Source of the DNA: a virus
Reading direction: 5' to 3' (one strand)
Length of the DNA: 64,000 nt
IMG/VR virus record: IMGVR_UViG_3300029258_005404
A program made the translations under genes and the position numbers. The notes beneath the pieces are model-generated. The model did no database searches and was not told the origin of the DNA. It worked only from the letters and a program-made list of their open reading frames with translations. Positions 60,143 through 62,111 of the stretch are shown here, piece by piece; position 1 is the stretch's first letter, and the number at the start of each line of letters is the position of its first letter.

Positions 60143-61357
60143 ATGGCCAAAGTTAAAAAAGCTAATACTGGCCTTAACAGAACGGTTGTATTTGAAGTCA
60201 GTGTTGCTAATAATAATATTAAAAAACAAGTCATGGCGTCTATAGATAAATATAGAGCAGTGGCACGAAAGATGTATTCATCGGTTGCGATGGCAGCAAC
60301 TGCAGGAGCAACAATCGAAGTAAAAAATGGTGATGTCAGGGTTAAACCTTATACTCAAAATTCAAAAGATATATTGTCAAAAGCATATAATGTGTCTGGA
60401 AAAGCTCAATTTTATGAATTAAGAAATTTCGTATTAAAAGATCATGCTAATACATGGCAATCTGTAATATGGGATTCTTGCAGACTTGCAGTGGCTGGGA
60501 CATGGAATCATGCTGATCCCGAATTTTCTAAAGGTGAAAAGAAGGTTGGACGTGGCTGGTTATCACTCCAAGGCGCAAGAGCTTTTGGATTTTTCAATCG
60601 TTGTGGTATAGGTTTACCAAATACAAAATCTATACAATTTGGTTCAAAAAGTATGACGATGAAATGGGACAAGGAAATTGATGATGTAACATTTTTCGTT
60701 GACAGTAAGCTTCCCGGGAATACATTCTGGAAATTTAAGAACATAAGAGATGGTGTATGGGAAAGGGGTACATGTTACATTGGGTGGAAGTATAAAAATA
60801 TCGGTGGTGGTAAAAAAGTAAAAACACTTTATATAACAATGACCTATAAACTTCCAGAAAATTATTTCAATGAGGAATCAGGTGAAGGTGTTATGATTGT
60901 TGAGTTTACAGATGATCCTGAAAACGGAATCGTCATGTATTCTGATGATAAGTTCCATTATTCCGACAAAATAAGTGTGTATGAGGCTATAGCATGGAAT
61001 AAGCAACTCAATGTTGTAAAGGATTACTACAAAAAACAAAGAGCATCAGTTGGTGGTAGAGATAAGCAGTGGGGTCTCAACCAAAGTCTCATGGTTATTA
61101 GTAACAAAAGTGAAAATTTGACCAAAAGGAGAATTAACGGCAAAAAGCATCGGAATCATATATGGGCCAACAGAATAGTGGCGAGAGTTAGACAATGGGG
61201 TATGGGTGTTGTTGTACTCAAAGATTTTCCTGACGGCCTATTAATTGATCAGGAATGGTCTATGTTTGAGCTTAAAGAAATATTGAAGTACAAACTTAGA
61301 GAAATTGGGTGTGAGTTGAAAACCTATAATACCCCAAAAGAAGAAGAAGCTGCTTAG
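60143..61357 (+). CDS. Nuclease-inactivated TnpB/Cas12f-like RNA-guided protein (404 aa)
   Basis: SLQGARAFGFF...IGLP, WED strand LYITMTYK, RuvC-I-like VMIVEFT, basic bridge helix, H.WANRIV...VVVLKDF, WSMFELKEILKYKLREIG; ends before the zinc finger and RuvC-III; adjacent to a CRISPR array. Confidence 0.8.
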   Translation: MAKVKKANTGLNRTVVFEVSVANNNIKKQVMASIDKYRAVARKMYSSVAMAATAGATIEVKNGDVRVKPYTQNSKDILSKAYNVSGKAQFYELRNFVLKDHANTWQSVIWDSCRLAVAGTWNHADPEFSKGEKKVGRGWLSLQGARAFGFFNRCGIGLPNTKSIQFGSKSMTMKWDKEIDDVTFFVDSKLPGNTFWKFKNIRDGVWERGTCYIGWKYKNIGGGKKVKTLYITMTYKLPENYFNEESGEGVMIVEFTDDPENGIVMYSDDKFHYSDKISVYEAIAWNKQLNVVKDYYKKQRASVGGRDKQWGLNQSLMVISNKSENLTKRRINGKKHRNHIWANRIVARVRQWGMGVVVLKDFPDGLLIDQEWSMFELKEILKYKLREIGCELKTYNTPKEEEAA

Positions 61358-61562
61358 GAATCTAAATAGCGCACGGGAGAAATTAAAAATATAGGCGCTA
61401 TGGAAATTGTGTTATACTAGGCCCTAAAAAAAATATCAGAGTAATTTTTTCATACGAGTGAGGGAAATTGATTAGGCTACAGCGCCATTCTAAAAGATTT
61501 CTGAACTTATTTGTACATAAGGAAAGCTGAGTGGTGAGATTTTGGATGTTGTATCAATTATT

Positions 61563-61954
61563 GTTTCTTCCGCGCGCGCGAGGGAAACTGGGATTTGCAT
61601 TTAATTTCAACTACCTGCGCAAGTATGCTCCGCGCGCGCGGGGGAAACTGGATATTCGGCCGGGAGAGGGCGAAACAGCTGTAGTATGCTCCGCGCGCGC
61701 GAGGGAAACTGGGTTACTTCGTACCTCTATTCCATCATATCCTAGTATTCTCCGCGCGCGCGATGGAAACTGGGGAAATTTCCAATCATACTGGCGTGAC
61801 CATAGTATTCTCCGCGCGCGCGAGGAAAACTGGGTTTCTTTTATATACAAAAGGGTGCAATATTGTATTCTCCGCGCGCGCGAGGGAAACTGGCCCCCCA
61901 GCATTTGAACTTGCCGTTATCGTTCGTTTCTTTCGCGCGCGCGAGGGAAACTGG
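61563..61954 (+). CRISPR. CRISPR array: 7 repeats of 29 nt, 6 spacers of 31-32 nt
   Basis: Consensus GTATTCTCCGCGCGCGCGAGGGAAACTGG at 61563, 61623, 61684, 61745, 61805, 61865, 61926; period 60-61; all spacers unique. Confidence 0.95.
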
Positions 61955-61989
61955 TTTGGGATATTTCGGTTTTAAAAATAAATTTATAT

Positions 61990-62111
61990 CCGGAAATAGT
62001 AAGGTGAACACCCTTGCATTTCTTTACAAGTTACAACTGAGGCTACAGTTTGTCTCGTGGATAGTAGAGTGCTATCTAATGTTCCGATGGAACACCCTCG
62101 CGCGCCTTTTT
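61990..62111 (+). ncRNA. Putative tracrRNA (5' end approximate)
   Basis: Hairpins at 62039-62056, 62058-62078 and 62080-62094; anti-repeats CAGTTT (62046-62051) and CCCTCGCGCGC (62095-62105); T5 tract at 62107-62111. Confidence 0.75.

Follow-up and report, generated by a model that had tools for sequence, protein, structure and literature searches.

What might a virus use an RNA-guided protein for whose nuclease centre appears to be dead? The question is raised by the IMG/VR virus record IMGVR_UViG_3300029258_005404, of which a stretch of 64,000 nucleotides (nt), here called the window, was analysed. A single unit on its plus strand, with a gene for a protein of 404 amino acids (aa), a CRISPR array of seven repeats and a structured anti-repeat RNA with a U-tract, had been predicted from the sequence to be a new miniature type V-like system, and all three parts were recovered at the positions predicted for them. 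We lean slightly towards reading the locus as a phage-borne CRISPR system derived from type V-F, which would combine a nuclease-dead Cas12f (dCas12f) with a trans-activating CRISPR RNA (tracrRNA), an array of six spacers and, probably, a zinc-ribbon subunit that has become detached, and which would silence rival phages by binding only. To our knowledge, dead Cas12f has so far been studied only as a partner of bacterial sigma factors; array-linked forms have been mentioned, and we know of no test of them and of no known targets. Added here are targets in the primase-helicase gene of sibling phages and a probable split of the zinc ribbon from the effector. The main parts of the locus are the following.

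60143-61357, plus strand: dCas12f gene, 404 aa, an open reading frame (ORF) with an AGGAGG ribosome-binding site
61563-61954, plus strand: CRISPR array in which 7 direct 29-nt repeats alternate with 6 spacers 31-32 nt long
61563, 61623, 61684, 61745, 61805, 61865 and 61926: starts of the repeats, with a period of 60-61 nt
61592-61622, 61652-61683 and 61713-61744, plus strand: spacers S1, S2 and S3
61774-61804, 61834-61864 and 61894-61925, plus strand: spacers S4, S5 and S6
62036-62111, plus strand: tracrRNA-like RNA with three hairpins, anti-repeat and U-tract, from fold prediction and sibling alignment
62039-62056: hairpin A, whose loop CAGUUU (62046-62051) is complementary to AAACUG at the repeat 3′ end
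62058-62078 and 62080-62094: hairpins B and C
62095-62105: anti-repeat, 11 base pairs (bp) with the repeat core
62107-62111: U-tract (T5 in the DNA)
62135-62359, plus strand: zinc-ribbon ORF, 74 aa, starting 24 nt past the tracrRNA-like RNA

All of these parts share the plus strand. The same order of gene, array and RNA was found again in the sibling phages L001 and L030 and in the distant family members L009, L029 and L006, and because it recurs in both groups the arrangement is not a chance one. The identity of the parts is regarded as nearly certain.

The single effector protein gave zero matches when compared with Pfam, NCBIfam and the PDB sequences. An exhaustive homologue search returned 143 cluster representatives, nearly all of them 360-480 aa in length, and a family profile built from 59 of these was used against the PDB chains. 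The profile matched Cas12f chains at E 6e-25 to 1e-13, among them OsCas12f (6e-25), AsCas12f (about 1e-20), SpCas12f1 (4e-20) and the published nuclease-deactivated Cas12f (Fta dCas12f, 1e-15), and also Un1Cas12f1 (about 1e-4). An AlphaFold (AF2) model calculated with the family alignment reached a predicted local distance difference test score (pLDDT) of 93 and a predicted template modelling score of 0.83, whereas prediction from the effector sequence alone was unusable (pLDDT 32). The top Foldseek matches of the model were AsCas12f, OsCas12f and dCas12f (best E 2.5e-14, range about 1e-14 to 1e-13), and in VIA-align comparisons AsCas12f, SpCas12f1, OsCas12f and dCas12f scored Z 20-21 over 330-350 residues, with lower scores for Cas12k and TnpB (about 15) and for Cas12m (11-12). 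By profile and model, the effector is a member of the Cas12f (type V-F) lineage with the WED-REC-RuvC fold of Cas12f and TnpB.

The active site of this fold is dead as judged from its residues. E254 sits at the position of the RuvC-I aspartate and K360 at that of the RuvC-II glutamate in the profile alignment, and the chain ends 22 residues past the YK..G strand, with RuvC-III and the zinc finger missing. The survey of the active site was extended to an alignment of 112 full-length relatives: aspartate at RuvC-I was present in none of them, glutamate at RuvC-II in 10, and all 112 stop 10-50 residues past the YK..G strand. The lack of the RuvC-I aspartate and the uniform truncation across 112 relatives mark a large, old and uniformly dead family and not one decayed gene, and the window protein is predicted to be nuclease-dead with a C-terminally truncated RuvC domain. 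The TnpB/Cas12f-like effector with a dead, truncated RuvC that the original prediction had described was thus confirmed by profile, Foldseek, VIA-align and the E254/K360 substitutions; a profile search against Cas12 structures and a structure prediction, both of which it had proposed as checks, yielded the Cas12f match and the WED-REC-RuvC fold.

Within the family tree the window protein belongs to a supported clade of 21 (support 0.92) together with the proteins P0019 and P0008. The same effector protein was found on contigs of up to 186 kb, and its look-alikes in the ESM Atlas form one mostly viral cluster as well as Bacteroidota clusters of 364-365 aa. No homologue was found among 50,697 GenBank phage records.

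The repeats of the array are rich in G+C (66%) compared with the genome (36%), and their 3′ two thirds are nearly invariant, with variation in the first eight bases. Arrays with a 61-nt period adjoin effector homologues at 26-48% identity, and the tracrRNA-like element also occurs in the sibling phages L001/G001 (48% effector identity) and L030. An alignment of four tracrRNA sequences, that of the window and three sibling copies, was used for the analysis of the structure. Within the three hairpins 94.7% of the alignment cells pair, compared with 29-48% in controls with slid partners, and 9 of the 19 stem pairs show compensatory change on both sides. Complementarity over 11 nt exists between the 3′ tail of the tracrRNA (CCCUCGCGCGC) and the repeat core. 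A second pairing joins the loop of hairpin A to the 3′ end of the repeat, and here loop and repeat end covary across four divergent loci: CAGUUU:AAACUG in the window, CCAUUU:AAAUGG in L001 and L030, CCCACAU:AUGUGGG in L009 (34% identity) and CCAUCA:UGAUGG in L029. Guide RNAs of Cas12f pair repeat and tracrRNA at two places as well. Both pairings need transcripts of the plus strand, and therefore the guide would consist of a repeat handle at the 5′ end and the spacer at the 3′ end, as in type V. Taken from conservation and complementarity, the array and the downstream anti-repeat RNA are parts that belong with the effector gene.

With respect to geometry alone, the 29-nt partly palindromic repeat and the spacers of about 32 nt are type I-E-like, and the earlier label of a type I-E-shaped repeat is right as a description. 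A different explanation starts from this likeness, namely that the array is read by host Cascade or acquired by host Cas1-Cas2, and that dCas12f and its RNA serve as an anti-CRISPR decoy which soaks up host CRISPR RNAs; the decoy idea was earlier proposed for phage Cas9 with a dead RuvC (PMC11656645). Repeat length, spacer length and the stem-forming GC core would all fit, as would two target flanks that read AAG, the classic protospacer adjacent motif (PAM) of type I-E. Moreover, some viruses are known to carry mini-arrays which work with Cas proteins of the host against related viruses (PMC11656645), and the phage is without adaptation genes (searched in the sibling genome), yet the spacers of its siblings differ. 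A decoy for host crRNAs accords poorly with a tracrRNA that, in four loci, changes in step with the repeat of the phage itself, and with a dCas12f family whose members are accompanied by such arrays over a range of 26-48% identity. A search for host arrays that contain the repeat core yielded isolated chance matches in GC-rich contigs and no array among the matches listed, and a scan of Rfam returned no CRISPR repeat family but a chance microRNA match only. The decoy is considered very unlikely.

Several of the related arrays show peculiarities of their own. L001 has two tracrRNA-like copies (7346-7422 and 8266-8342; 83% identical) that flank its 12-repeat array and differ by compensatory stem changes, and the last repeat of this array is truncated. 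L006, an IMG/VR contig, has an irregular, broken array with short and doubled units, inside which the last approximately 50 nt of the gene of the dCas12f homologue are duplicated (6180-6230 and 6505-6560). At L009 an HTH_3/HTH_19 gene (99-524) ends 3 nt before the start of the distant family member P0012, and a caspase-like Peptidase_C14 gene (3758-4624) follows the 13-repeat array.

The unit had originally been taken to be complete at position 62111, and this boundary has to be moved, since the conserved zinc-ribbon ORF at 62135-62359 is probably part of it. The ORF lies at the same position in a sibling phage (58% identity), and it shares 43% identity (E 2e-14) with the last 70 residues of P0019, where they are fused to a dCas12f body. 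Residues 385-440 of P0019 in turn match positions 1-48 of 60 of the Pfam Cas12f1-like TNB domain (E 3.6e-5; 24.3 bits, under the cutoff of 26.3), and the match stands at the native place of the zinc finger. P0008 retains a CxxC...CxxC tail. A homologue search with the zinc-ribbon protein found only the protein itself. Due to its homology to the fused TNB-like extension of P0019, the 74-aa ORF is read as a detached TNB zinc ribbon, and its assignment as a zinc-ribbon subunit of dCas12f is moderately supported and probable; the protein would then probably be present in the dCas12f complex. By analogy, a docking role is plausible, because in sigma-E systems the C-terminal domain of the sigma factor occupies the space that zinc finger and RuvC-III left on their loss (PMC10691335). 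The interpretation as an active nuclease in two pieces was rejected: the zinc-ribbon ORF is without a RuvC-III-like motif, and RuvC-I and RuvC-II are lost.

The zinc-ribbon protein also bears on the possibility that the complex of dCas12f and guide is a targeting module which recruits a nuclease of phage or host, or another effector, possibly via this very protein, so that the DNA of the rival is destroyed. Such recruitment has precedents in Cas12k with Tn7 proteins and in dCas12f with sigma-E, whose C-terminal domain lies in the zinc finger/RuvC-III gap (PMC10691335), and a small conserved protein derived from that same zinc-finger region is retained here. However, no nuclease gene is kept beside the locus in the window, L001 or L030, and most family members end without a zinc ribbon. 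The recruitment of a destroying partner is thought to be unlikely.

Evidence for silencing by binding comes from the spacers. Spacer 4 matches the complete 208-kb sibling genome G001 at 25 of 31 positions inside the gene of a 1141-aa primase-MCM helicase, and beyond this site no spacer match outside the arrays was found in the window or in G001. S2 and S4 both lie within the primase-MCM helicase gene, in coding sense, at gene nucleotides 898 and 238, respectively. The numbers of mismatches are 5 for S2 and 6 for S4 in the sibling L028, 5 for S4 in L026 and 6 for S4 in G001, compared with 5 for S2 and 8 for S4 in the phage's own copy of the gene (L024). Matches with up to 6 mismatches numbered five in 224 kb of target and zero in 60 shuffles. 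The mismatches between spacers and targets fall mostly on codon position 3 (21 of 29), and the decapeptide encoded by S2 is identical in P0149 of L028, a protein 79% identical to the phage's own. Since S2 and S4 match imperfectly in primase-MCM helicase genes and mismatch at wobble positions, the spacers appear to stem from an as yet unsampled relative. Being of the same sense as the mRNA, the guides cannot pair with it; they must pair with the template strand of the DNA. Template-strand pairing is the effective orientation for roadblocks by dCas12a.

The distribution of the mismatches along the guides is of interest as well. Those in the own copy include guide positions 1 and 6 for S2 and positions 3, 6 and 9 for S4, while in L028 the first 9 and the first 11 guide positions match from the 5′ end. 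Mismatches near the 5′ end in the own copy and matches there in L028 fit a pattern in which the phage spares itself and targets its sibling. The original prediction had named competing elements and host defence genes as candidates for repression by binding; because two spacers correspond to sites in the primase-helicase gene of sibling phages, the idea of binding without cutting as a means against competing elements has gained support, whereas repression of host defence genes has none, no host target having been found.

The same target gene permits the view that the system tunes the phage's own primase-helicase via imperfect guides, or that it carries out RNA-guided transcription in the manner of dCas12f-sigma-E, with a phage sigma-like factor. 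In the own gene, 27 of the 32 positions of S2 agree, 13 of them among the first 16, which is noteworthy as the published dCas12f is satisfied by 13-14 bp of a 14-16-nt guide (PMC13472631); moreover, a weak match to Sigma70_r3 (E 3.4e-5) was obtained for the window ORF at 32531-33229. The mismatches in the own gene at guide positions 1 and 6 (S2) and 3, 6 and 9 (S4) speak against self-regulation, and sibling genes match the guides better than the own gene does. No sigma or helix-turn-helix (HTH) domain was found in the genes neighbouring the window locus, and no match to sigma-70 region 2 (Sigma70_r2) in the complete sibling genome. In addition, neither the window nor the complete sibling genome yielded a self-target with up to 8 mismatches, and the spacers of sibling phages are entirely different from those of the window, which fits an arms race better than a fixed regulation. 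Self-regulation is accordingly rated as quite unlikely.

For the silencing of rivals the following course of events is proposed. The array would be transcribed on the plus strand, and each repeat would pair with the tracrRNA twice, through its core with the tracrRNA 3′ end and through its 3′ end with the loop of hairpin A, which would result in a guide with the repeat handle at its 5′ end and the spacer at its 3′ end. The dCas12f protein, by analogy with other Cas12f probably dimeric, would bind matching double-stranded DNA adjacent to a PAM and stay there with no cutting. The primase-MCM helicase gene of sibling phages would be the target of at least two guides, which would pair with its template strand, and in a co-infected cell the complex would block the transcription (or the replication) of this essential replication gene of the rival. 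The phage's own gene copy would escape via mismatches at the 5′ end of the guide, which is the PAM-proximal seed in type V. Binding without cutting, a roadblock effect and inter-phage rivalry as the purpose are what we infer from the fold, the dead active site, the covarying RNA, the array and the relation of spacers to targets. A wider version of this scheme, in which a mostly phage-borne family of split dead Cas12f has its TNB zinc ribbon as a separate subunit, silences the replication genes of sibling phages and has its spacers renewed via hijacked host adaptation of a type I-E-like kind, is put forward tentatively and is rather doubtful.

If the proposed silencing holds, the primase-helicase gene of sibling phages would be the first concrete target for a phage-borne dead Cas12f, with the own copy protected by mismatches at the guide 5′ end, and with this target assigned, a function so far unknown becomes accessible to a competition experiment. 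In the wider, rather doubtful version of the scheme, the family would represent a self-contained natural weapon of CRISPR interference (CRISPRi) of virus against virus with a two-piece effector. If the TNB zinc ribbon did become detached, this would be relevant to the way in which Cas12f came to lose its nuclease and acquire partners. The system is also compact (404 aa, 74 aa and an RNA of approximately 75 nt), and would be naturally multiplexed and naturally non-cutting, which makes it of practical interest for small CRISPRi tools.

Several points weigh against the silencer scheme. Firstly, no spacer has a perfect protospacer, the best having 5 mismatches in 31-32 nt. Secondly, no target was found for 4 of the 6 window spacers and for all spacers of the sibling arrays. 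Thirdly, the 5′ flanks of the targets read TTAAG, TTAAT, TTAAG, TCAGC, TCAAA and TCAAA, and AA at positions -3/-2, which they hint at as a candidate PAM, comes from the flanks of imperfect protospacers. Fourthly, the zinc-ribbon link draws on one fused homologue and on a Pfam score just below the threshold. Further searches for targets gave no match of the degenerate-codon patterns of spacer 4 in metagenome or viral contigs, and a best E of about 1 or worse when three arrays were compared by BLAST with GenBank phages. A preference of the spacers for ribosome-binding site and start codon was considered and rejected, as 2 of 19 in forward sense (P = 0.086) is not significant. Spacer 3 (61713-61744) has a gapped 29/33 match (E about 1), probably due to chance, to a GreA-like gene of Salicola phage SCTP-2, a phage of 440 kb from a solar saltern.

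How far is such a system new? The original prediction had stated that the combination matches no recognised subtype. This is not supported, due to the fact that the effector lies within the Cas12f (type V-F) lineage and that truncated dead forms were described before (PMC10691335, PMC13472631); the interpretation is right in kind, and its novelty was overstated. Type V-F Cas12f nucleases (AsCas12f, OsCas12f and SpCas12f1; PDB 7wju, 8dzj, 8j12, 9nzq and 9i8y) are of the same size class, have the WED-REC-RuvC fold and, like the window locus, combine an array with a tracrRNA capable of pairing to the repeat. In contrast to them, the window effector is without any of the catalytic Asp-Glu-Asp positions of RuvC and does not have the TNB zinc finger in its polypeptide, and the system is phage-borne, without adaptation genes and with 29-nt repeats at I-E-like spacing.

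Similar in the state of the effector are the dCas12f-sigma-E systems of Bacteroidota (PMC13472631; PDB 9n9c and 9n9m), in which a C-terminal truncation likewise removes RuvC-III and the zinc finger; the window effector compares with 9n9m and 9n9c at Z 20.4-20.5 and with a profile E of 1e-15. These systems bind DNA without cutting, and the same is proposed for the window effector. They differ in having an operonic rpoE with a C-terminal extension and usually an HTH gene, neither of which adjoins the window locus, and in having chimeric single guides, with the array lost and no tracrRNA, whereas the window has a full array and a separate tracrRNA-like RNA. Moreover, they target sites upstream of a host operon, and the targets identified for the window lie inside a gene of rival phages. 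Hoffmann et al. (Nature 2026; PMC13472631) characterised the sigma-E partners of dCas12f, found no tracrRNA for them, and determined that dCas12f needs 13-14 matching base pairs of a 14-16-nt guide.

Truncated dead Cas12f, array-linked forms included, is already present in the literature. A separate, untested dCas12f cluster beside CRISPR arrays in bacterial metagenome-assembled genomes (MAGs) was reported by Hoffmann et al. (PMC13472631, Extended Data Fig. 1a,b), and Altae-Tran et al. (PNAS 2023; PMC10691335) described that Cas12f lost RuvC-III, followed by array shrinkage and fusion with the tracrRNA. The array-linked dCas12f (PMC13472631) and the RuvC-III-less Cas12f (PMC10691335) are dead, truncated, array-adjacent and without sigma-E, like the window system, and a repressor role was proposed. 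These reports are bioinformatic and concern bacterial MAG loci (Chitinophagaceae efflux promoter); they were compared with the window by description, not by sequence, and neither a phage context nor a tracrRNA, a partner with a zinc ribbon or targets in phages are described in them. In a literature search of incomplete coverage, no paper was found on a phage-borne dCas12f with array and tracrRNA, on its targets or on a detached zinc ribbon.

Other systems resemble the proposed one in principle. Cas12m (type V-M) silences a competitor element's essential genes through binding only, and this kind of silencing is established for Cas12m (PMC10442227, PMC11013384), but the protein belongs to a different Cas12 branch (Z 11-12), has no tracrRNA and is mostly plasmid-borne. 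Viral CRISPR mini-arrays (PMC11656645), which serve in competition between viruses, an established idea, have spacers aimed at close relatives of the carrier, as in the window; they borrow host Cas proteins, whereas the window phage brings its own effector. TldR proteins are, in likeness to the window effector, RuvC-dead and truncated RNA-guided binding repressors of the TnpB fold, some of them carried by phages or prophages. They descend directly from TnpB and have one fixed omega-type guide and no array, in contrast to the Cas12f descent, multi-spacer array and tracrRNA of the window system.

The remaining features of the locus concern its possible transcription.

60025-60054, plus strand: candidate sigma-70-like promoter 5′ of the effector gene, TTGAAA-18-TATAAT, 11/12, a consensus match only
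60070-60100: additional TATAAT-like boxes, read from the sequence
61358-61562, plus strand: AT-rich leader of 205 nt between gene and array, read from the sequence
61410-61418, plus strand: extended -10-like TGnTATACT in the leader, a putative promoter element at which the promoter scan made no call
near 61456-61475, plus strand: degenerate repeat-like remnant in the leader, a reading of the sequence
61999-62017, plus strand: terminator-like hairpin with a T-rich run after it, where the pre-crRNA transcript may end

The terminator-like hairpin was the only such call in 59900-62400. A promoter cluster had been seen in front of the gene, of which one strong sigma-70-like site (11/12) was retained; the cluster as such gained only partial support, as promoter-like sites across the region were no commoner than in shuffles (10 found, 7.7 expected).

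With regard to its genome context, the window is phage DNA, as baseplate wedge, tail fibre and helicase PHROGs were identified. As had been predicted, no match to Cas1, Cas2, Cas4, Cas6 or TnpA was found when about 40 ORFs of the window, part of the small ORFs included, were compared with Pfam or PHROGs, and a search of the complete 208-kb sibling genome in six frames returned no Cas1 or Cas2. The weak Sigma70_r3 match mentioned above belongs to a 232-aa ORF on the minus strand (24.3 bits, just under the Pfam cutoff), which may encode a phage sigma-like factor; it lies 27 kb from the dCas12f locus and is of interest since in bacteria a sigma factor acts together with dCas12f. The ORFs 41996-43273 (plus strand), 399-1541 (minus strand) and 6753-8009 (minus strand) carry Fib_succ_major, CarboxypepD_reg and PKD domains. 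Such domains of surface proteins occur typically in Bacteroidota and Fibrobacter and hint at the phylum of the host, in agreement with the Bacteroidota look-alikes of the effector. ARAGORN identified a tmRNA-like gene with a 29-residue tag (44386-44793, plus strand) and a tRNA-Glu(UUC) (45206-45279, plus strand), and a 2597-aa ORF (8012-15805, minus strand) is located inside the block of structural genes. Just upstream of the locus, a DUF5983 protein (58220-58825, plus strand), which is syntenic in all three sibling phages, and a denV-like pyrimidine-dimer glycosylase (Pyr_excise; 58829-59176, plus strand) are encoded.

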